A stretch of DNA of 64,000 nucleotides from Escherichia coli. GTDB taxonomy: Bacteria > Pseudomonadota > Gammaproteobacteria > Enterobacterales > Enterobacteriaceae. Within the stretch, counting starts at the first letter, position 1; every line of letters begins with the position of its first letter. The position numbers and the translations under genes are program-made. Positions 165 through 37,578 of this stretch are shown piece by piece. Location: assembly GCF_965641715.1 (NCBI RefSeq), contig NZ_OZ282453.1; one strand, 5' to 3'. The notes beneath the pieces are model-generated. The model did not search any database. It had not been told where the DNA came from and saw nothing but the letters and a program-made list of their open reading frames with translations.

Positions 165-283
165 CGCGTATCCTCCTCTGAAGATATTCTTTAAGTTTAC
201 TCCTTTCCTGCAATCATCAGGATTAATTCAGAGTTATATACCAGGCTTAGCTGGGGTTGCCCCTTAATCTCTGGAGAATAACG

Positions 284-2029
284 ATGATAAAACCGACGTT
301 TTTACGCCGGGTGGCCATTGCTGCTCTGTTCACAGGAAGTTGTTTTAGTACGGTAGCCGCGCCACCTGCGCCGTCTCCTGTTTCTTACGGCGTGGAGGAA
401 GATGTCTTTCATCCGGTACGCGCGAAACAGGGGATGGTGGCATCTGTAGATGCTACTGCCACTCAGGTGGGGGTGGATATCCTCAAGGAGGGCGGGAATG
501 CCGTTGATGCCGCCGTGGCTGTGGGCTACGCGCTGGCGGTAACGCATCCGCAGGCAGGGAATCTGGGCGGTGGTGGTTTTATGCTGATCCGCTCGAAAAA
601 TGGCAATACCACCGCTATCGATTTCCGCGAAATGGCACCCGCCAAAGCGACCCGCGATATGTTCCTTGATGACCAGGGCAACCCGGACAGCAAAAAATCA
701 CTCACTTCGCATCTGGCTTCCGGCACGCCCGGTACGGTCGCTGGTTTCTCGCTGGCGTTGGATAAATACGGCACAATGCCGTTGAACAAAGTGGTGCAGC
801 CAGCGTTTAAACTGGCACGCGATGGTTTTATCGTTAACGACGCGCTGGCTGACGATCTCAAAACCTACGGGAGCGAAGTGCTGCCGAATCACGAAAACAG
901 CAAGGCTATCTTCTGGAAAGAGGGCGAGCCGCTGAAAAAGGGCGACAAGCTGGTGCAGGCGAACCTGGCAAAGAGCCTGGAGATGATTGCCGAAAACGGC
1001 CCGGACGAATTCTACAAAGGCACGATAGCGGAACAGATTGCCCAGGAGATGCAGAAAAACGGTGGCCTGATCACTAAAGAAGATTTAGCGGCGTATAAAG
1101 CGGTCGAACGCACACCGATAAGCGGCGATTATCGCGGGTATCAGGTTTACTCTATGCCACCGCCATCTTCCGGTGGGATTCATATCGTGCAGATCCTCAA
1201 TATTCTGGAAAACTTCGATATGAAGAAATACGGCTTTGGCAGTGCCGATGCGATGCAAATCATGGCAGAGGCTGAGAAATACGCCTACGCCGACCGCTCG
1301 GAATATCTTGGCGACCCGGATTTTGTCAAAGTCCCGTGGCAGGCGCTGACCAATAAAGCCTATGCCAAATCTATTGCCGAGCAAATCGATATCAATAAAG
1401 CGAAACCGTCCAGCGAGATTCGCCCTGGCAAGCTTGCGCCTTATGAGAGTAATCAAACTACCCATTACTCAGTGGTGGATAAAGACGGTAACGCCGTGGC
1501 GGTGACCTATACGCTGAACACCACCTTCGGTACGGGTATTGTCGCGGGCGAGAGCGGTATTCTGCTTAATAACCAGATGGATGATTTCTCCGCCAAACCG
1601 GGCGTACCGAACGTTTACGGGCTGGTAGGCGGTGATGCCAACGCGGTCGGGCCGAATAAACGCCCGCTGTCGTCGATGTCACCAACCATTGTGGTGAAAG
1701 ACGGTAAAACCTGGCTGGTTACCGGTAGCCCTGGCGGGAGCCGGATTATTACCACCGTGCTGCAAATGGTGGTGAATAGCATCGATTATGGCATGAACGT
1801 CGCCGAAGCGACCAATGCGCCGCGTTTCCACCATCAGTGGTTGCCGGACGAGCTGCGTGTCGAAAAAGGGTTTAGCCCGGATACGCTCAAACTGCTGGAA
1901 GCAAAAGGTCAGAAAGTGGCGCTGAAAGAGGCGATGGGCAGTACACAAAGCATTATGGTTGGGCCGGACGGTGAGTTGTACGGCGCATCCGACCCGCGCT
2001 CGGTGGATGATTTAACGGCGGGGTACTAA
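284..2029 (+). CDS. ggt: gamma-glutamyltranspeptidase (periplasmic, Ntn-hydrolase)
   Basis: ORF track 257..2029; N-terminus MIKPTFLRRVAIAAL... signal peptide from the ATG at 284; conserved autoprocessing region ...SNQTTHYSVVD...; full-length match to E. coli GGT as recalled. Confidence 0.95.
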   Translation: MIKPTFLRRVAIAALFTGSCFSTVAAPPAPSPVSYGVEEDVFHPVRAKQGMVASVDATATQVGVDILKEGGNAVDAAVAVGYALAVTHPQAGNLGGGGFMLIRSKNGNTTAIDFREMAPAKATRDMFLDDQGNPDSKKSLTSHLASGTPGTVAGFSLALDKYGTMPLNKVVQPAFKLARDGFIVNDALADDLKTYGSEVLPNHENSKAIFWKEGEPLKKGDKLVQANLAKSLEMIAENGPDEFYKGTIAEQIAQEMQKNGGLITKEDLAAYKAVERTPISGDYRGYQVYSMPPPSSGGIHIVQILNILENFDMKKYGFGSADAMQIMAEAEKYAYADRSEYLGDPDFVKVPWQALTNKAYAKSIAEQIDINKAKPSSEIRPGKLAPYESNQTTHYSVVDKDGNAVAVTYTLNTTFGTGIVAGESGILLNNQMDDFSAKPGVPNVYGLVGGDANAVGPNKRPLSSMSPTIVVKDGKTWLVTGSPGGSRIITTVLQMVVNSIDYGMNVAEATNAPRFHHQWLPDELRVEKGFSPDTLKLLEAKGQKVALKEAMGSTQSIMVGPDGELYGASDPRSVDDLTAGY

Positions 2030-2037
2030 GGTTAGCG

Positions 2038-2066
2038 GCCCTCTTCGTGGGAAGAGGGCTATTTTG
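2038..2066. terminator. Rho-independent terminator hairpin shared by convergent ggt and yrhB
   Basis: Stem GCCCTCTTC (2038..2046) / GAAGAGGGC (2051..2059), loop GTGG, followed by TATTTTG. Confidence 0.7.
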
Positions 2067-2351
2067 TCAGGGCAAGCCGAAGGTAGCCTTTTTTATTTCG
2101 TAATCCTGTAGATATTCTTCCAGCGGCTTTGCCGTTCCCAGAGAATGAATTTCACCACTGTCTTTATCAATAATAAAAGGTGCGTTACCAGCTAAGCGCG
2201 CGGCCTCATCTCCAGTTTCGAGAAATTCTCGTGCTTCGAAACAGAAATACCAGCCCTGGCTAAAGCGTCCATGTAGAGTAATGACGACCGGGAGATCTGC
2301 ATCATCAAGGTAATGGTTCGCTTTCGCGAATGCGTCGTGATAAGTAATCAT
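2067..2351 (-). CDS. yrhB: small 94-aa protein at the position of K-12 yrhB
   Basis: ORF track 2067..2351 (94 aa); size and position next to ggt match K-12 yrhB (recalled); the sequence itself was not independently recognised. Confidence 0.55.
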   Translation of the reverse strand: MITYHDAFAKANHYLDDADLPVVITLHGRFSQGWYFCFEAREFLETGDEAARLAGNAPFIIDKDSGEIHSLGTAKPLEEYLQDYEIKKATFGLP

Positions 2352-2800
2352 AATTATAATAAATATTATTGTTGAATGTTATATTATTATTCCTGTGTGA
2401 TACATTGAGCAAAGGTGCATTCATCTTCGTCAAAGATATTATTAAATGCTGGTTTTGAAAAAAGTTCATCGGATAAGATATAGTCACGAAATAAGTATCT
2501 GCTAATATTTTGTGATTTCTTTTTCAGAACGTCGAACGGGATTTTCTTATTTAAGATATCAGAATCTTATGATTTGGGTAAAATTCTAAATAAATCAACA
2601 TGTCACTAAAATCATCATAGCCATTAGCTATTTCGGCTAAAATAGAGACTACATGTCTTCGGTCCATCTCACTTAAGGAGTGTAGTTCCGTTGTAAGTTT
2701 TTCCATAGCTTGCATTGCTAAATTTCGAACAAGGAATTTTCTGGTGGTAATCTCTAAAAAGATGGCATGGTTTACAATGATTTTTGTTTCCTTTTGATTA

Positions 2801-3295
2801 TTATGAACAACTATCCATGATTTCGTTTAAGAATGAAGAGAAATCACTAAACGAACTGAATATATTTTCTGTGCCAATATTATCTCTAATTTCAAAAAAG
2901 TTACTTTTAATGTCATAAGTAAATATTGAAATGCTATCATCCCCGATCACTAACCGTTCTTGTAGATCAGGGTTTATGAAATCATCATTATTTCTATAAA
3001 ATTCATTTACGGCAAAAAGGTTTTTAACTGAAGGTTCTGGAATCGAGAGGCTAAATAATCGCAATCCATTAACTTCGAATCCATCCATTGCTCTTAAAAA
3101 AGTAAGATAATCAGGTTGATTCTTAAAAAGAATACTAACTTCATTACATAACTTCTCCAGGCAATTAGTTGAATTAGAATTAAATTCTATTTGGATTATA
3201 CTTTCAATAAATGATTCCTTGAGCGGTGCTTCAAATGGATAGTCTAAATCATTCATCATTTTTATTAATTTGTTTATTTGGGTTTTAGTCATCAT
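2801..3295 (-). CDS. putative immunity protein for the upstream HNH-like toxin domain (position of K-12 yrhA)
   Basis: 164-aa acidic ORF; its ATG overlaps the stop of the toxin-domain ORF (ATGA overlap at 3292..3295); AT-rich codon usage like the neighbouring Hcp gene. Confidence 0.5.
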   Translation of the reverse strand: MMTKTQINKLIKMMNDLDYPFEAPLKESFIESIIQIEFNSNSTNCLEKLCNEVSILFKNQPDYLTFLRAMDGFEVNGLRLFSLSIPEPSVKNLFAVNEFYRNNDDFINPDLQERLVIGDDSISIFTYDIKSNFFEIRDNIGTENIFSSFSDFSSFLNEIMDSCS

Positions 3296-3678
3296 TTTGT
3301 GGGTTCCATAATATTTTTCATGGGAGGATAAATTGAGCCAGATGGAATGGCCCAGGGAGTGATTTTGCTTTCACCTACTAATATTCCCTTAGCTATTCGT
3401 GATTGCATGTTAGTAAAAACTTTATGATATGGTTCGTTTTCGATTAATACTAAATTTTCGAAATCATTAGTACCACCATCATCTAGAGATAGTTTATGGT
3501 GAACATTATAATTTAGAGGAACATAGCCCTTTCTCATTCTTAAAAGGTCTTCGGTGTTGAATCTTCCAGATGCTTCGGAGGTTTTTGCAAGTTTGATAAG
3601 AAAATTTTTTCTTACAGTTTTGTTAAACTCCTTTCGTAAGTTAGCTAAGTCTTTTGAAGGTCTCTTAATGTATATTAT
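3292..3678 (-). other. C-terminal HNH-like nuclease toxin domain of an Hcp-toxin fusion (yhhZ-like), in frame with the Hcp ORF but separated from it by one TAA
   Basis: Frame arithmetic: 4470-3537=933 (multiple of 3); the 47 codons between the TAA (3679..3681) and the ATG at 3535..3537 contain no stop and translate cleanly (IIYIKRPSKDLANLRKEFNKTV...); HNH-type motif NVHHKLSLDDGGTNDFENLVLIENEPYHK. Confidence 0.55.
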
Positions 3679-4470
3679 TTATATTATGTCTATGCCATCA
3701 AGAAGTTTTTGTTGATCTCTAAGTTTGCCTAAGTAACTATTTATTTCTGTATATGTATCAACTTTAGAACGCTTTGTTAAAAGAATAGATGCTGTTGCTA
3801 TCGCTATGCCCGCTGTTTTTTCATTTAGTATTTGATCATAGCCTTTGATTGCATCTCCACCCAGTTTTTCCGCAGTATCTCTGAATCCTTCAATGTTCCC
3901 ATTGTATACGCCACCAGCAGCAAGTAGCCTGCCAACAGCTTTGCTGTTTAACGTTTTGAAACGATTATTTGTTTGGTTTTTTGAATTTGGTAAAAACAAA
4001 CGGTTATAATTTTCAGGGAGTGCCAAATAGCTGAACTCGGTATTTGCGATAAGATGTTGACAGAGGATAAATTCATAACTAACAGTTATTGTTTCTGTAT
4101 CCAGTTGATTTTGAATGATCTGATGATGAATAGCCGATAAAAAAGCGCCTCTTAGTTGTGTATAATAATACTTTTCCCATCTACCAAATCTATTGATTCT
4201 ATAAAAGTCAAATTTCATAAATAATTGCTCATTATTGTTAATGGAATTAATAAGTAATGGAGTGCTTTTATCAATTAATTTACAAAATGTCATAGCCTGT
4301 AACTGTGAACCAAGCCCCGTATTAGTAATTCTATTTTCGAGTGAGAATGTAAATATTTCATTCTCATGCCCGCTCTGCCAGCGATTACCTATAGATTCAG
4401 TAGTCCCACAACCTGCGGAGATGCTTCCTTGTTGTTCTCCCGTTACTGTCAGATAAACAATATTACTCAT
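3679..4470 (-). CDS. yhhZ: Hcp (type VI secretion tube protein) domain with C-terminal extension; N-terminal part of a yhhZ-like Hcp-toxin fusion ending at an in-frame TAA
   Basis: N-terminus MSNIVYLTVTGEQQGSISAGCGTTESIGNRWQSGHENEIFTFS is Hcp-like; 263 codons to TAA at 3679..3681; ORFs 3679..4470 and 3292..3537 share one frame; combined length ~392 codons equals K-12 YhhZ as recalled. Confidence 0.7.
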   Translation of the reverse strand: MSNIVYLTVTGEQQGSISAGCGTTESIGNRWQSGHENEIFTFSLENRITNTGLGSQLQAMTFCKLIDKSTPLLINSINNNEQLFMKFDFYRINRFGRWEKYYYTQLRGAFLSAIHHQIIQNQLDTETITVSYEFILCQHLIANTEFSYLALPENYNRLFLPNSKNQTNNRFKTLNSKAVGRLLAAGGVYNGNIEGFRDTAEKLGGDAIKGYDQILNEKTAGIAIATASILLTKRSKVDTYTEINSYLGKLRDQQKLLDGIDII

Positions 4471-4706
4471 CCCTGAAAAGTCCTTTTATGGCATGCTATT
4501 TTATCAATGGCACTATTATGCTTGTTAATTGTTATTTATTTACTCCAGGAAATTGTAGGCGTATATATTAAAAAATAAAATATTACACTTTAGGAAGTAA
4601 TTATGAGGTAAGTCTCAATATATTTATTGGGAAAATAAATACATTAAAGGAAGGTATGCCGATTTTGAATGACACCCTTTTTCCATCTCAGAAAAAGGGC
4701 ACTATT

Positions 4707-5195
4707 TTACTTCACCCGCGCCATAAAATACGCATCAACATATTCACCATTACGTAATGCGTACTTCTTGCCAGTCCCTTCAATCTCAAAGCCGAATTTT
4801 TTATAGACCTTAATTGCTGGCGCGTTATCGACAAACACCGTTAGCTCAATACGATCTACCCGCAACCAGTTGTCGCACATTTCAATCATCTCTCGCATCA
4901 GGGCGCTGGCGACGCCGCGATTCTTCCAGCGGGCGTCGACACAGATACCAAAATCGGCAACATGACTGCGGCGTGGGCGCTGTTGCACGTCAATGGTGAG
5001 ATGGCCCACGACGTCTCCATCAATACAGGCGACGAGTTGCTTGATGCCGGGACGATTGGCGAGTCGCTCCTGCCACATATAATCGGAAGGATGAGGCACT
5101 TGTAGCGTGTTGTAATACACCTCCGGCTGGGCGTGAATCTGCCTGATGGCCTCGTAATCGCGCGTTTCAGCATGGCGTATCACTATCTCACTCAT
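4707..5195 (-). CDS. yhhY: GNAT-family N-acetyltransferase
   Basis: ORF track 4707..5273; likely start at the ATG 5193..5195 (MSEIVIRHAETRDYEAIRQIH...) preceded by GAGGA; 162 aa. Confidence 0.85.
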   Translation of the reverse strand: MSEIVIRHAETRDYEAIRQIHAQPEVYYNTLQVPHPSDYMWQERLANRPGIKQLVACIDGDVVGHLTIDVQQRPRRSHVADFGICVDARWKNRGVASALMREMIEMCDNWLRVDRIELTVFVDNAPAIKVYKKFGFEIEGTGKKYALRNGEYVDAYFMARVK

Positions 5196-5528
5196 TCCTT
5201 TGTCCTCTTTGGGGTAAATGTCCCTTTCAACATCATTGACTTTCGAATGCGAGTCAAATGCATTTTTTTGCAAAAAGTGTTGGACAAGTGCGAATGAGAA
5301 TGATTATTATTGTCTCGCGATCAGGAAGACCCTCGCGGAGAACCTGAAAGCACGACATTGCTCACATTGCTTCCAGTATTACTTAGCCAGCCGGGTGCTG
5401 GCTTTTTTTTTGATCTTTCGTTCTCAATTTATCCTCGGGAAGTGCTTGTGTTCGTTATGCGCACTCCAGTAGGAACCACGTCCGCTTTGCGCTAAGGTGT
5501 AAATAACCACCTTAAAAAGGACGAAATC

Positions 5529-10752: not shown

Positions 10753-12849
10753 ATGGAAAAGCACGCAGCTGAATTGCTTTTACAGCGGATGTTAGGAAAT
10801 ACCACCGCTACTTTCAGGGAAGGGCAATGGGAAGCCATAGACGCGGTGGTGAACCAACGGCGAAAACTGCTGGTTGTCCAACGCACTGGCTGGGGGAAAA
10901 GTGCTGTGTACTTCATCGCCAGTAAAATCTTCCGCGATCGCGGCGCTGGCCCGACAATTATCATCTCTCCTTTGCTTGCCCTGATGCGTAACCAGGTTGC
11001 CGCCGCTGAACGGTTAGGTATTACGGCTGAAACGTTGAATTCTACAAACAGAGAAGAATGGCAGCGCATTAGCGATAAGTTGCTGCAAGGTGAGGTCGAT
11101 TGCTTGCTGGTTTCCCCGGAACGTTTGGCAAACCAGGACTTTATCGAAACGGTTTTATATCCTATAGCCGATCGTATTGGCTTGCTTGTGGTCGACGAGG
11201 CGCACTGCATCTCTGATTGGGGCCACGATTTTCGCCCGGATTACCGACGTATATTAGATATTTTGCGCCAACTACCTGCGAATACCCCTGTTCTGGGTAC
11301 AACCGCGACAGCGAATAACCGTGTCGTTGAGGATATCCGTCAGCAATTGGGTGACATTGTGATTCAGCGTGGAACGCTGGCTCGCGAAAGTTTGGCGCTT
11401 GATGCCTTAGTCTTAGGTGAACAGTCATCCCGTCTGGCATGGTTAGCAACGGTTATCCCTCAGTTTTCCAAATCGGGAATTGTTTATACCCTGACTACTC
11501 GCGATGCCGAACTTGTCGCCGAGTGGTTAAGGAAAAATGGTATCAGTGCATTTGCTTACTACAGCGGCGTGACTTGCGAAGGCGCGGAAGATTCTAATAC
11601 TGCCAGGGAATATCTGGAGCAGGCGTTGCTGGCAAATAAAATTAAAGTGCTGGTTGCGACAACGGCGCTGGGAATGGGCTTTGACAAACCGGATTTGGGG
11701 TTTGTTATTCATTACCAGATGCCAGGTTCGATAGTTGGTTACTACCAACAGGTGGGGCGTGCCGGTCGCGGTATCGATTCTGCTGTTGGCATACTGCTTT
11801 GCGGCAGTGAAGACCGTGCTATTCATAAATTCTTCCGTGAAAGCGCCTTTCCTGCGGAGGCGCAAATTCATGAAATACTCAACGTACTTAGCGTGAATGA
11901 CGGTCTTACCTTACGAGGCATTGAACAACGGACGAATCTCCGTTATGGGCAAATAGAAAAAGCACTGAAATTATTGGTAGCTGAAAATCCATCGCCTGTG
12001 GTGTATACCGAGAAATTATGGCGCAGAACAATTGTCAGTTTTTCTCCTGACCATGAACGAATTAACCATTTGATGAATCAGAGAAAAAGTGAGCTGGCAG
12101 ACGTTGAAAGCTATATCACGACCAAGGAGTGCAAAATGCAATTTCTGCGCCGCGCACTCGATGAGCCAGGTGCCGAACATTGTGGTAAATGTAGCAGTTG
12201 TCTTCAGCATCCGTTGTTGTCGCCCGACATTGATAGCGGCTTACTCCATGCGGCAAACTTATTTATTAAACACGCTGACCTGCCATTAAATCTCAATAAA
12301 CAGGTGGCAGCTGGGGCTTTTACGCAATACGGATTTAAAGGGAACTTGCCTGCGAGTTTACAAGGATCTACGGGGCGAATCCTTTCTCGTTGGGGAGATT
12401 CCGGGTGGGGAAAGCAGGTAGCACAGGAGAAAAAAACGGGGCGATTCAGTGATGAACTGGTGGAGGCATGTGCGGAAATGGTTCGCCAACGCTGGAATCC
12501 GCATCCTGAACCAACCTGGGTATGCTGCGTTCCTTCATTAAAGCACCTCGACCTGGTTCCTGATTTTGCCCGGCGACTGGCGGCGAAACTTGGCTTACCT
12601 TTTATTGATGCCATTGAAAAAGTCGTGGACAATCCACCGCAGAAAATGCAGCAAAACCGTTTCCACCAGTGTCAAAATCTCGACGGGGCGTTTGTGATTA
12701 CCCCTCCTTTGATGCCTGGTCCGGCGTTGCTGGTTGACGATATCGTGGATTCTGCATGGACGCTGACAGTTCTGACAGCACTGTTACGCCAGGCAGGTTG
12801 CCCGACGGTTTATCCTCTTGCCCTTGCTTCTACCTCGGTAAAAAATTGA
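10753..12849 (+). CDS. RecQ-like superfamily-2 DNA helicase fused to a C-terminal divergent phosphoribosyltransferase (ComF/GntX-like) domain; candidate toxin/effector of a two-gene module
   Basis: 698-aa ORF. Walker A QRTGWGKSAV, DEAH box LLVVDEAHCISDWGHDFR, motif VI QQVGRAGRG, Cys cluster CKMQ...HCGKCSSC, C-terminal PRTase-like fold with altered PRPP loop (LLVDDIVDSAWTL). Strong AGGAGA RBS. Confidence 0.85.
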   Translation: MEKHAAELLLQRMLGNTTATFREGQWEAIDAVVNQRRKLLVVQRTGWGKSAVYFIASKIFRDRGAGPTIIISPLLALMRNQVAAAERLGITAETLNSTNREEWQRISDKLLQGEVDCLLVSPERLANQDFIETVLYPIADRIGLLVVDEAHCISDWGHDFRPDYRRILDILRQLPANTPVLGTTATANNRVVEDIRQQLGDIVIQRGTLARESLALDALVLGEQSSRLAWLATVIPQFSKSGIVYTLTTRDAELVAEWLRKNGISAFAYYSGVTCEGAEDSNTAREYLEQALLANKIKVLVATTALGMGFDKPDLGFVIHYQMPGSIVGYYQQVGRAGRGIDSAVGILLCGSEDRAIHKFFRESAFPAEAQIHEILNVLSVNDGLTLRGIEQRTNLRYGQIEKALKLLVAENPSPVVYTEKLWRRTIVSFSPDHERINHLMNQRKSELADVESYITTKECKMQFLRRALDEPGAEHCGKCSSCLQHPLLSPDIDSGLLHAANLFIKHADLPLNLNKQVAAGAFTQYGFKGNLPASLQGSTGRILSRWGDSGWGKQVAQEKKTGRFSDELVEACAEMVRQRWNPHPEPTWVCCVPSLKHLDLVPDFARRLAAKLGLPFIDAIEKVVDNPPQKMQQNRFHQCQNLDGAFVITPPLMPGPALLVDDIVDSAWTLTVLTALLRQAGCPTVYPLALASTSVKN

Positions 12850-14051
12850 TGAATCTTTCAGCCAATGCACAAGCAACTCTCCTGCTAACCAGCGATTTTT
12901 CTCGCGCGGCGGCGAGTGAGTATAAACCTCTTAGTAATAGTGAATGGGGGAAGTTTGCATTATGGCTGAAGCACCAACGTATCAGTCCCGCCGAGCTTCT
13001 GGTGCCGCAACCGCAAGAGAAACTTACAGGCTGGAGCGATCCGCGTATTTCTCAGGAGCGTATTCTTGGCTTGCTGGCGCGTGGTCATAGTCTGGCGTTG
13101 GCGGTAGATAAGTGGCAACGCGCCGGTTTATGGATCTTAACCCGCGGAGATGCTGATTATCCCGTTCGCTTGAAAAACCGATTGCGAACGGATGCACCTC
13201 CCGTTTTATTTGGCTGCGGGAATAAAGCATTACTGCAAGCGGAAGGTATGGCGATTGTTGGCTCGCGAGATGCTCCGACTGACGATTTGCGCTATACCCA
13301 ACAACTGGCCGCGAAACTGGCCCAACAGGGGATTTGCGTTATCTCTGGTGGTGCGCGAGGTATTGATGAATGTGCAATGGCGTCGGCACTGGAGGCCGGG
13401 GGAACTGCCGTTGGCGTATTAGCTGATAGCTTGTTAAAAACGAGTACGTTAGTGAAATGGCGTGAAGGGCTTATAGCAGGCAACCTGGTGTTGATTTCGC
13501 CGTTTTACCCAGAGGTACGTTTCACCGTCGGCAATGCGATGGCGCGAAATAAATATATTTATTGCCTTGCTGAAAGCGCAATGGTTGTACGTGCGGGAAT
13601 GACCGGTGGAACGATAACCGGGGCGATGGAGGCATTAAAACATCAGTGGCTGCCTGTGCAGGTTAAACCAAATCAGGATATGCAATCAGCCAATTCACGA
13701 TTAGTAGAAAATGGGGCGTCATGGAGTGCTGAACAGGCTGAGAATGTGACGATCAGACTGCCAGACGTTCCTGGGCTGATGTATGACAGAGCACTCCGTA
13801 ACGCTCAACCAGAACTGTTTTCGCTGCATGAAGATGACGCAAATTACGCAGTAATGCCCGCGTATACGCCTGTCGATTTTTATCAACTCTTTGTGGCGGA
13901 ACTGGCGATCCTTGCAAAGGAATCGATAAGTATTGAAAGGCTGGCGTCTTGTACTGGTTTAACCATCGAACAAATTAGTGTGTGGCTGAACCGCGCAGAA
14001 GAAGAGGGAAGGGTTATCCGATTGGGCGAAGGTCATTATCAGTTCAGGTAA
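12849..14051 (+). CDS. DprA/Smf-like protein; candidate antitoxin/partner of the RecQ-PRTase protein
   Basis: ATG at 12849..12851 overlaps the helicase TGA (12847..12849); 400 aa (MNLSANAQATLLL...); Rossmann signature GMAIVGSRDAPTDDLRYTQQLAAKLAQQGICVISGGARGIDECAMASALEAGG; ORF track extends it upstream in the same frame (12756). Confidence 0.8.
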   Translation: MNLSANAQATLLLTSDFSRAAASEYKPLSNSEWGKFALWLKHQRISPAELLVPQPQEKLTGWSDPRISQERILGLLARGHSLALAVDKWQRAGLWILTRGDADYPVRLKNRLRTDAPPVLFGCGNKALLQAEGMAIVGSRDAPTDDLRYTQQLAAKLAQQGICVISGGARGIDECAMASALEAGGTAVGVLADSLLKTSTLVKWREGLIAGNLVLISPFYPEVRFTVGNAMARNKYIYCLAESAMVVRAGMTGGTITGAMEALKHQWLPVQVKPNQDMQSANSRLVENGASWSAEQAENVTIRLPDVPGLMYDRALRNAQPELFSLHEDDANYAVMPAYTPVDFYQLFVAELAILAKESISIERLASCTGLTIEQISVWLNRAEEEGRVIRLGEGHYQFR

Positions 14052-25742: not shown

Positions 25743-27260
25743 ATGGACAGAATGATGCCAAATAGAAAATGGATTTTGACCTCGCTGATAATGACTTTTT
25801 TCGGCATCCCCATACTGGCGCAATTTTTGGCAGCGGTTGTTGCCATGCTGGGTGTCGGGCTTACCGGTATTATTGAAGTTTGTAATATCCTTATCACGCC
25901 AACAATTTATCTTCTACTCAACGTCTTTATGCTGACGCTGGGGGCGATAATAATATTTTTCTCTGGTCGCGTGTGGGCCGGTGATAGCGCGCCAGAAAAC
26001 AGAGAAATAGCCGTCTGGCGGCAATGCTTTTTTCTCTTACCCGCGCTATTAACCTTGGTTGGCTGGATAATCACGCTACATCTGGCAGATTATCAATTTC
26101 GCCAGATGGGAGCTGGTTGGTTGGCAAACCTTATGCTTCCCTGGTTGGGCGTTTTTTTAGTCTCATTAGTGGGTGGTGAGTACTGGTGGATGGTCATTAT
26201 TCCCGTTGGGGCGCATATCAGTTTTTCGCTGGGATACGCCTGGCCGACCAGATATCCTTTATCCGGCACGTCCGGACTACGTTGCCGTAACTTACTCCTG
26301 TTTCTACTTATCTTACTTGGTATTGTCGCCGGGTATCAGGCCCATTTATATAAGCAGCAAAATCCTGGTGTCGGTGTACGCGAAAATATTGATATCTGGG
26401 CCTGGCGACCCGATAAACTCAATAATCGACTGACGCCGCTGCGTGGCAAACCGCAAATTCAGTTTAGGCAAAACTGGCCGCGAATCGATGGCGCCACGGC
26501 TGCGTACCCAATTTATGCTTCTGCATTTTATGCATTAAGTGTAATACCAGAGGATTTTCACGTTTGGGATTATCTGGAAAACTCTCGTACGCCAGAAGCA
26601 TATAACAAAATCGTTAAGGGCGATGCTGATATTATTTTCGTGGCGCAACCTTCCGGTGGGCAAAAAAAACGTGCAAAGGAATCTGGTGTCACTTTGGTGT
26701 ACACCCCCTTTGCCCGTGAAGCATTCGTTTTCATCGTCAATGCGGATAATCCGGTTAATTCCCTGACTGAACAACAGGTGCGTGACATTTTCAGTGGTGC
26801 AATTACCAATTGGCGTACTGTTGGCGGTAACGATCAGGAGATCCAGACCTGGCAGCGCCCGGAAGACTCTGGCAGCCAGACAGTGATGCAATCACAGGTC
26901 ATGAAAAATGTCCGCATGATCTCGCCGCAGGAAACGGAAGTGGCAAGCGTGATGGAGGGAATGATTAAAGTCGTTGCCGAATACCGTAATACAAACAACG
27001 CAATAGGCTATACCTTCCGCTATTACGCGACGCAAATGAATGCCGATAAAAATATAAAACTGCTAGCGATTAACGGTATTGCACCGACTGCGGAAAATAT
27101 TCGCAATGGCAAATATGCGTACATCGTCGATGCATTTATGGTGACGAGAGAAAATACAACGTCAGAAACACAAAAACTGGTCGAATGGTTTTTAACGCCG
27201 CAGGGGCAGAGTCTGGTAGAAGATGTGGGATATGTGCCGCTGTATCCAACAATGGAATAA
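25743..27260 (+). CDS. membrane-anchored PstS-like (PBP-like) substrate-binding protein: ~6-7 TM N-terminal domain plus C-terminal binding domain
   Basis: 505-aa ORF; N-terminal ~200 aa with several hydrophobic helices; C-terminal domain paralogous to the next gene (IIFVAQPSGGQKKRAKESGV...WQRPEDSGSQTVMQ); start codon uncertain (25743, 25752 or 25755). Confidence 0.75.
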   Translation: MDRMMPNRKWILTSLIMTFFGIPILAQFLAAVVAMLGVGLTGIIEVCNILITPTIYLLLNVFMLTLGAIIIFFSGRVWAGDSAPENREIAVWRQCFFLLPALLTLVGWIITLHLADYQFRQMGAGWLANLMLPWLGVFLVSLVGGEYWWMVIIPVGAHISFSLGYAWPTRYPLSGTSGLRCRNLLLFLLILLGIVAGYQAHLYKQQNPGVGVRENIDIWAWRPDKLNNRLTPLRGKPQIQFRQNWPRIDGATAAYPIYASAFYALSVIPEDFHVWDYLENSRTPEAYNKIVKGDADIIFVAQPSGGQKKRAKESGVTLVYTPFAREAFVFIVNADNPVNSLTEQQVRDIFSGAITNWRTVGGNDQEIQTWQRPEDSGSQTVMQSQVMKNVRMISPQETEVASVMEGMIKVVAEYRNTNNAIGYTFRYYATQMNADKNIKLLAINGIAPTAENIRNGKYAYIVDAFMVTRENTTSETQKLVEWFLTPQGQSLVEDVGYVPLYPTME

Positions 27261-27285
27261 CGCTCGAGAGAAAGGAATCAGCGAG

Positions 27286-28278
27286 ATGAATAAATTCACC
27301 GGTGTTTTACTATTAGGCACGGCGTTACTGGCGGGATGTGTCGACCGGGAAGGGTACTATAACAGCGTCAGGGAAGAAGAGAGCCATGGACTGACGTCTC
27401 TGCGGGGGCAACCTGCATTACGTTACAGCGATGATTGGTCAAGATGGCCGAGAGTGTACGGCGCTACAGCCTTATACCCGCTGTATGCCTCCGCGTATTA
27501 TAAATTAGTACCCGAGCCAAAAGATAAGGATCGAACCTCGCTGGCCTGGCAGGCGTATGGTTTGCAGCAAACCCGAACAGCTGAAGCCTACGATAGTCTG
27601 ATTAAAGGTTCCGCGACGGTTATTTTTGTTGCACAACCGTCGGAAGGACAGAAAAAACGTGCAGAAGAAGCGGGTGTTAAACTGAAATATACCGCTTTCG
27701 CCCGCGAAGCCTTTGTCTTTATCGTTGATATTAATAACCCGGTAAATTCTCTCTCTGAGCACCAGGTTAAAGATATTTTTAGCGGCAAAACTAGCCGCTG
27801 GAATAAAGTAGGTGGTAGTGACGAACATATAAAAGTCTGGCAGCGCCCTGAAGATTCTGGAAGCCAAACGATTATGAAGGGATTGGTTATGCAAGACACC
27901 CCAATGCTGCCAGCTAAAAAATCCACTGTGATTGATCTTATGGGCGGTTTAATTACTGAAGTTGCCGACTATCAAAACACGCCATCTTCCATTGGGTACA
28001 CCTTCCACTATTACGTCACTCGTATGAATGACAATATGCTCAAAATGCGCAAGCAGATTAAACTTTTGGCTATAAATGGCGTTGCGCCTACCGAGGAAAA
28101 TATCCGCAACGGCACTTATCCATACATTGTGGATGCCTATATGGTGACGCGTGAAAATCCCACGCCGGAAACGCAGAAATTTGTTGACTGGTTTATAAGT
28201 CAGCAGGGGCAACAGTTGGTAGAGGATGTGGGGTATGTGCCGCTGTATGAAGCATCCCCCGAATCATCAGGACAATAA
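27286..28278 (+). CDS. PstS-like (PBP-like) substrate-binding lipoprotein, paralogue of the upstream gene
   Basis: Frame of ORF 27223..28278; start MNKFTGVLLLGTALLAGC (lipobox LLAGC) at 27286 after AAAGGAA; 330 aa; shares VIFVAQPSEGQKKRAEEAGV...WQRPEDSGSQTIMKG with the upstream gene. Confidence 0.8.
   Translation: MNKFTGVLLLGTALLAGCVDREGYYNSVREEESHGLTSLRGQPALRYSDDWSRWPRVYGATALYPLYASAYYKLVPEPKDKDRTSLAWQAYGLQQTRTAEAYDSLIKGSATVIFVAQPSEGQKKRAEEAGVKLKYTAFAREAFVFIVDINNPVNSLSEHQVKDIFSGKTSRWNKVGGSDEHIKVWQRPEDSGSQTIMKGLVMQDTPMLPAKKSTVIDLMGGLITEVADYQNTPSSIGYTFHYYVTRMNDNMLKMRKQIKLLAINGVAPTEENIRNGTYPYIVDAYMVTRENPTPETQKFVDWFISQQGQQLVEDVGYVPLYEASPESSGQ

Positions 28279-35212: not shown

Positions 35213-37578
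<2,366 letters not shown>

Follow-up and report, generated by a model that had tools for sequence, protein, structure and literature searches.

In a 64,000-nucleotide stretch of Escherichia coli DNA (contig NZ_OZ282453.1; hereafter the window), positions 3292 to 4470 on the minus strand are the E. coli gene yhhZ, annotated as tssD, "Hcp1 family T6SS effector" (T6SS, type VI secretion system), of the Hcp-ET1 family. The gene carries one premature TAA codon, and we assign a probability of about 0.9 to its being a recent loss-of-function pseudogene allele of yhhZ, an orphan T6SS effector of the Hcp-ET1 type. The gene, its family and the pseudogene status of the TAA allele are already known from public annotation.

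A nonsense mutation interrupts yhhZ

Translation of the minus strand gives a single frame of 393 codons, comprising 392 sense-codon positions and the terminal TGA, with one internal TAA. The open reading frame (ORF) list divides this frame into a 263-codon ATG ORF (3679-4470), 47 stop-free codons (3538-3678), and an 81-codon ATG ORF (3292-3537). Translation and ORF list agree with the original prediction, made from the letters of the window, which had described a single frame with one TAA after 263 codons, then 47 stop-free codons and an ORF containing NVHHKLSLDDGGTNDFENLVLIENEPYHK. The features of the gene are as follows.

3292-4470, minus strand: yhhZ (tssD/Hcp-ET1 family) pseudogene; orthologous to a 1179-nucleotide coding sequence in K-12, 55989, PapRG-04-4, D8, and others.
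3679-3681, minus strand: premature stop TAA, codon 264, from base-by-base comparison with intact alleles.
4030-4470, minus strand: Hcp/TssD tube-protein domain, residues 1-147 (NCBIfam TIGR03344; Pfam PF05638; PDB Hcp3 3he1).
3787-4029, minus strand: conserved extension or linker, residues 148-228, common to Hcp fusions with differing C-terminal toxins (alignment).
3322-3753, minus strand: predicted colicin-like HNH (His-Me finger) DNase module, residues ~240-383, cut at residue 264 (homologs, AlphaFold2, Foldseek, Pfam).
3421-3507, minus strand: HNH core motif NVHHKLSLDDGGTNDFENLVLIENEPYHK with H324, H325, D330, N335, N339, and H349 (invariant columns of an alignment).
3292-3537, minus strand: 81-codon ORF 3' of the stop, Met312 to Lys392, a yhhZ remnant (ORF list; contains NVHHKLSLDDGGTNDFENLVLIENEPYHK).

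The mutated base is window position 3681, where a G-to-T change on the coding strand turns GAA (Glu264) into TAA. The nearest intact allele, that of strain PapRG-04-4, has 3 differences from the window in 1179 nucleotides, the stop being one of the three, and the yhhZ genes of K-12 and 55989, at 39 to 40 nucleotide and 24 to 25 amino acid differences from the window, both read GAA at codon 264. Across the alignment this codon is GAA in all intact reference alleles, and the column holds E, Q, K, R, or N in remoter orthologues, so no conservation of the stop is seen. The reference alleles that are intact have a length of 1179 nucleotides and encode 392 amino acids; among them is the K-12 MG1655 gene (yhhZ, b3442, NP_417899, "putative endonuclease YhhZ", 1179 nucleotides), whose length had been put at about 392 codons in the original prediction. 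Every inspected allele lacking the TAA is a single 392-residue gene (395 residues in strain A29), except that of O145:H28, which has other lesions. The two halves are thus one gene in intact alleles, rather than normally separate ones, and alignment with the alleles of other strains, which had been proposed as a check, bears out a recent inactivation.

The change therefore has the properties of a nonsense pseudogene: it is disabling relative to intact orthologues and is not conserved in the species. Programmed recoding would call for a stop conserved among orthologues, which is not what the alignment holds. To our knowledge there is no recoding signal in yhhZ, although no search for one was made here. 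As the TAA at codon 264 intervenes, toxin and Hcp are not fused in one uninterrupted ORF as they are in Hcp-ET effectors, and the window yhhZ is a member of the Hcp-ET family by descent, as a pseudogene.

The stop codon lies within the predicted toxin domain

Domain analysis was performed on the 392-residue protein with codon 264 restored to Glu. The N-terminal Hcp/TssD domain is well supported, with 123.7 bits for TIGR03344 (cut-off, 58.9), an E value of 3.8e-12 for PF05638, and E values of 1e-11 to 1e-12 for PDB Hcp chains (1.2e-12 for 3he1). Among 5.8 billion proteins searched, orthologues sharing this C terminus were found in Citrobacter and others, along with many Hcp fusions that align to the first 56 to 70% of the query and then continue into other toxins (PF15644, PF11429, PF21814). 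In the alignment of these fusions, invariant columns extend to S228 and divergence by toxin type sets in thereafter, so residues 1 to 228 make up the carrier module.

The toxin module begins at residues ~240 to 245. When residues 229 to 392 were compared with 1.84 billion representatives, 577 homologs were found at E values of 1e-3 or less, nearly all aligning at query positions ~16 to 155 (residues ~244 to 383). The match lies at the extreme C terminus of the homologs, followed by a median of 2 residues, in host proteins of 170 to 1,542 amino acids; such placement is the signature of a presumptive polymorphic-toxin C-terminal module. An NCBIfam scan of eight long carriers of the module gave almost no matches besides LysM repeats in one.

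Pfam on the single YhhZ protein gives a weak HNH match (E value, 0.015) and Col-Pyo_DNase at an E value of 1.4, a signal that was resolved through an alignment of the family, a profile comparison with the PDB, and AlphaFold2 modeling with Foldseek. Among 31 family members, Pfam HNH matches 12 at E values of 1e-3 or less and all 31 at 0.1 or less, and in the 31-sequence alignment H324, H325, D330, N335, N339, and H349 are invariant. The toxin-family profile finds the HNH domain of Cas8f-HNH (E value, 2.6e-4) and matches the DNases of colicin E7 and pyocins weakly. The AlphaFold2 model of residues 229 to 392 has a predicted local distance difference test score (pLDDT) of 90.2 and a predicted template modeling score (pTM) of 0.83. 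Its best PDB matches in Foldseek, at a probability of 1.0, are the DNases of pyocin S2, pyocin AP41, and colicins E7 and E9 and the Serratia Rhs2-CT toxin; superposition on the entries 4qko, 4uhp, 1mz8, and ColE9 is partial, covering 77 to 87 columns with a root mean square deviation of 2.5 to 2.9 Å and a template modeling (TM) score of 0.34 to 0.45. The module thus combines conserved His and Asn residues of a ββα-metal core with fold similarity to solved colicin and pyocin DNases, as expected of an HNH/His-Me finger nuclease.

On this model, codon 264 is position 36, within the β-strand spanning positions 32 to 40. Because the carrier ends at about residue 228 and the toxin starts at ~240 to 245, the TAA is not at a domain junction, but cuts the modeled toxin domain of ~140 residues some 20 residues past its start. 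The placement of the split between the Hcp and HNH domains in the original prediction needs to be revised in this respect. The domain map, with a carrier to ~228 and a toxin at ~240 to 383 in which an extra N-terminal β-sheet is set on a colicin-like HNH core, may aid studies of Hcp-ET1.

The consequences of the mutation can be proposed. In the published account of the orthologue, the T6SS2 tube delivers the nuclease to rival bacteria, and the product of the next gene downstream, here yrhA, neutralizes it in the producer. With G changed to T at Glu264, translation would stop once 263 residues had been made, within the first β-sheet of the DNase domain. The 263-residue product would keep the carrier and lose every catalytic residue, and with them the weapon. 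The 128 codons after the TAA are probably open only because the mutation is recent, and the remnant that they encode is presumably unexpressed.

The Hcp part of the gene (4030-4470, the first ~400 nucleotides of yhhZ) varies much more from strain to strain than the remainder does. Between the window and K-12 there are 28 nucleotide and 16 amino acid differences in these 400 nucleotides and 3 nucleotide differences in the next 350, a pattern suggestive either of two families of haplotypes or of a carrier domain under diversifying selection.

The TAA allele is rare and occurs on several haplotypes

A megablast search with positions 3200 to 4560 yielded matches to this region, chromosomal every time and at 96 to 99.8% identity, in 3,818 of the 5,426 complete E. 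coli genomes; in 3,770 complete genomes the frame matches an annotated gene at this level of identity. A 61-nucleotide probe centered on the TAA has an exact match in 2 of the ~3,500 complete genomes carrying the region, those of A30 (NZ_CP028745, baboon feces) and 2018-05-2CC (NZ_AP027877, human feces, Viet Nam). In both, the Prokaryotic Genome Annotation Pipeline (PGAP) flags the 1179-nucleotide feature as a pseudogene with "internal stop". This rarity and annotation speak against a regulated gene, which had been offered in the original prediction as the alternative to an inactivated one. The exact 263-residue product is public (e.g., SQM44808.1, "Secreted protein hcp") and was found on 27 contigs, the longest of 5.16 Mb, and in 35 index blocks. 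An assembly from an independent run, Logan contig ERR14841801, matches the window at every one of the 1179 nucleotides.

The window equals A30 over positions 1892 to 4112, a 2.2-kb identical tract that holds yrhB, yrhD, yrhA, the 3' two-thirds of yhhZ, and the TAA, whereas the two differ at 9 positions in the first 400 nucleotides of yhhZ. In all, the TAA stands on at least three distinct 5' haplotypes (those of the window, A30, and 2018-05-2CC), with 9 to 10 nucleotide differences in the first 400. Because a long identical tract with the TAA lies beside a diverged 5' end, the sequences fit one origin of the TAA with later recombination close to the gene.

Several candidate carriers were discarded. 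A second 263-residue protein in the same cluster, P0009 (17 residues different), does not have an independent stop; both contigs shown end there, which is assembly truncation. AHM8C212RI and AHM8C160RI match the TAA probe at 98.4% and are not close overall, and AHM8C212RI, when examined, was intact. The sizes of truncated protein clusters were not taken as a pseudogene frequency, since many members are partial proteins at contig ends.

The neighboring genes and the putative immunity gene yrhA

The gene order yhhY-yhhZ-yrhA-yrhD-yrhB-ggt is the same as in K-12, 55989, and others, and yhhX, yhhW, and then gntR lie beyond the small RNA RyhB. The features around yhhZ are as follows.

257-2029, plus strand: ggt, neighbor of the yhhZ island.
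2067-2351, minus strand: yrhB, annotated in reference strains; Pfam PF15567, Imm35 (a polymorphic-toxin immunity family), is recorded on an identical neighborhood elsewhere.
2551-2706, minus strand: yrhD, a small island ORF at the same position as annotated yrhD in reference strains.
2801-3295, minus strand: yrhA, putative cognate immunity gene, intact (NCBIfam NF038335, YrhA family, 125.5 bits).
4707-5195, minus strand: yhhY, neighbor of the yhhZ island.
5346-5410, plus strand: RyhB small RNA, between yhhX and yhhY as in K-12 (Rfam RF00057, 83.1 bits).
~2200-4700, no strand assigned: AT-rich (~32% GC) accessory island with yrhB, yrhD, yrhA, and yhhZ (composition profile).

An intact yrhA lies directly downstream of yhhZ, as a cognate immunity gene does in Hcp-ET systems, its immunity function being putative. 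The YrhA protein of the window is identical in PapRG-04-4 and A30 and is 1 amino acid from that of 55989; the gene is the commonest allele, its exact sequence being found on at least 1000 contigs. No Pfam match was obtained for YrhA, so no relationship to Im7/Im9 was detected. Since yrhA is intact, the strain is probably still immune to toxin-producing kin. The yrhA ATG overlaps the yhhZ TGA (ATGA), and K-12 yhhZ and yrhA have been described as a single operon without a terminator (PMC12428005). Because of the overlap, translation of yrhA may be reduced by termination 385 nucleotides upstream, with the loss of coupled translation.

The island has a GC content of 0.29 to 0.37 over ~2200 to 4700, against about 0.50 to 0.58 on either side. 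About 30% of complete E. coli genomes are without it, and one sampled genome aligns over 53 nucleotides of flank only. In K-12, yhhZ and yrhA are listed among "promoter islands" in a table that stands in the paper's section on H-NS complex formation (PMC3661553), which fits an AT-rich, horizontally acquired segment. Poor expression of the segment would be expected. A promoter and terminator scan of 2000 to 5400 found sites no more numerous than in shuffled controls. No T6SS structural genes lie within the 64-kb window, which is collinear with annotated strain D8 (ggt...glg...mal...feo...envZ/ompR...hslO). The original prediction was therefore sound in placing an orphan, yhhZ-like Hcp-toxin gene in an AT-rich locus away from T6SS structural genes, and the gene is orthologous to yhhZ at the K-12 locus.

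The yhhZ locus decays in other strains

Lesions at this locus recur in E. coli. In O145:H28 (RM12761), E25* in yhhZ is accompanied by a 4-nucleotide insertion close to codon 150, and yrhB also has a frameshift. K-12 has IS1E within yrhA, E423 has ISApl1 between tssD and yrhA, and in KC-Dl-1 yrhA is frameshifted beside an intact toxin gene. An in-frame change is seen in A29, where a 9-nucleotide tandem duplication (Glu-Ile-Ile) at codons 264 to 266 lies in repetitive ATAATAGAAATAATA sequence, equivalent to ~3670 to 3690 of the window; its product of 395 residues is annotated as intact. Next to the island, ggt of NCTC9064 also has an internal stop and is a pseudogene. The nonsense allele of the window is one more ordinary decay event at the yhhZ locus, and provides another case of accessory interbacterial-toxin loci eroding in E. 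coli, where lineages lose the toxin or the immunity gene.

Alternative readings of the interrupted gene

The truncation might instead have been favored. In such a scenario, the 263-residue product would be retained as an Hcp-type tube subunit or decoy, and a toxin-less Hcp-extension protein together with YrhA would amount to a selected state, disarmed yet still immune, with the allele moving between strains by recombination. The untouched Hcp domain and extension, the intact yrhA, and the presence of the allele on 27 contigs and at least three 5' haplotypes are all compatible with this. Its extreme rarity among complete genomes, however, argues against an advantage, and the identical 2.2-kb tract speaks for a single recent origin and recombination breakpoints close by rather than for a selective sweep. 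Moreover, the Hcp part has been destroyed elsewhere (E25* in O145:H28), which fits neutral decay. We regard both the retained carrier and the selected disarmed state as improbable.

Less probable still is a working split toxin, with a free nuclease supplied by the 81-residue ORF or by some longer product of reinitiation, or else regulatory readthrough of the TAA. The 128 codons after the TAA are free of stops and keep all invariant HNH residues, and some submitted annotations call the 81-residue ORF a gene (e.g., BED20519.1). An open downstream frame, however, is expected after any recent nonsense mutation. The 47 codons that follow the TAA contain no further in-frame start codon, so the first such start lies 141 nucleotides past the stop, and the 20 nucleotides before it pair with the anti-Shine-Dalgarno sequence at -1.4 kcal/mol, compared with -5.3 kcal/mol for yhhZ. 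Met312 is position 84 of the AlphaFold2 model, within helix 78-85, and the ORF holds ~72 of the ~140 toxin-domain residues, missing both the long helix 44-67 and the N-terminal sheet of this compact, confidently modeled domain. Family members span query positions ~16 to 155, never the C-terminal half alone. Given half a domain, a start inside a modeled helix, and weak Shine-Dalgarno pairing, a free-standing toxin is unlikely, and the 81-residue ORF is best taken as a remnant rather than an independent gene; the earlier suggestion of a toxin domain decoupled from its carrier is likewise unsupported. As for readthrough, orthologues do not share the stop. Both E. coli release factors recognize UAA, and recoding at this codon is not known in the species. 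Positions 3292 to 4470 are best annotated as one pseudogene, not as "Hcp" plus "hypothetical/HNH endonuclease" (compare SQM44808.1 and BED20519.1).

A sequencing or assembly error at 3681, with GAA as the real codon and the gene intact, is scarcely credible: no RefSeq complete genome is identical to the window (best 25-kb match, 99.3%), but two complete genomes, each sequenced independently, have this base, as does an independent short-read assembly, and the exact product recurs on the 27 contigs noted above.

Some points weigh against a loss-of-function allele of a formerly working effector. K-12, E423, and KC-Dl-1 retain an intact toxin gene beside a disrupted or displaced yrhA, which raises doubt about expression of the locus or about a strict need for YrhA in self-protection; the combination suggests that the locus is silenced or that toxicity is low in the producer. 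Low-level reinitiation or readthrough is possible in the strain. Use of yhhZ before the mutation would have depended on the presence of a T6SS2 in the strain, and the analysis covered the 64-kb window. Finally, the equation of Hcp-ET1 with YhhZ, which we infer, draws on secondary sources and on the intact orthologue of 55989 at this locus.

Other features of the window

Three further segments carry accessory or duplicated genes. Between gntU and yhgN (10753-14051, plus strand), overlapping ORFs encode a RecQ-family helicase (698 amino acids) and a DprA-like protein (431 amino acids), an accessory two-gene module that is present in D8 and absent from K-12 and 55989. An IS4-family transposase ORF (372 amino acids; 36037-37155, minus strand) lies between rtcA and malT, in the sole stretch that is not collinear with D8, which has a DUF1778/GNAT toxin-antitoxin pair at this site. 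Two adjacent ORFs for PstS-family phosphate-binding proteins (505 and 351 amino acids; 25743-28278, plus strand) lie between glgP and glpD; both score under the NCBIfam PstS cut-off and both are also in D8.

The yhhY segment (4700-5200) differs from all seven compared strains at 15 to 36 positions per 500 nucleotides, and is by far the most divergent 500-nucleotide bin relative to the closest relatives, PapRG-04-4, A30, and 2018-05-2CC. This divergence suggests an imported or recombined tract.

Comparison with known systems

YhhZ has been termed an "evolved Hcp" whose HNH domain is degenerate and whose gene lies apart from T6SS loci (PMC2907695), and has been assigned, as a probable nuclease, to the His-Me finger superfamily (PMC5714182). 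Hcp-ET1 of STEC (E. coli that makes Shiga toxin), O104:H4, and 55989 is an HNH DNase that is delivered by T6SS2 and neutralized by the downstream product ETI1 (PMC6730261; PMC6099711; bioRxiv 10.1101/2024.03.05.583533). As 55989 has an intact 392-residue orthologue and yrhA at exactly this locus, we infer that Hcp-ET1 and ETI1 are the orthologues of YhhZ and YrhA.

The K-12 gene shares with that of the window its locus, gene order, 1179-nucleotide length, and Hcp-extension-HNH architecture, and its allele differs by 39 nucleotides and 24 amino acids. The state of the two genes is reversed: in K-12 the yhhZ frame is intact and yrhA is split by IS1E, whereas in the window yhhZ is truncated and yrhA is intact. 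The Hcp-ET1/ETI1 alleles of STEC004, O104:H4 C227-11, and 55989 are likewise intact, with reported killing of rivals via T6SS2; in contrast, the window allele is predicted to be unable to make the nuclease. The closest counterparts are the yhhZ/tssD pseudogenes of A30 and 2018-05-2CC, which have the same GAA-to-TAA change at codon 264 and differ in their 5' Hcp-domain haplotypes.

Similarity extends beyond orthologues to both halves of the protein. The predicted YhhZ fold at residues ~277 to 350 superposes on the DNases of colicins E7 and E9 and pyocins S2 and AP41, with an HH...N...H motif in common, yet sequence identity is just 16 to 28%. At its N terminus the YhhZ module has an additional sheet of three strands, and its carrier is Hcp, whereas colicins are carried by a translocation/receptor scaffold. 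Hcp-toxin fusions of Citrobacter, Salmonella, and Enterobacter, for their part, are 48 to 54% identical over residues 1 to 228, with many invariant columns in common, but have another toxin (PF15644, PF11429, or PF21814) after residue ~228, consistent with cassette exchange among polymorphic toxins.

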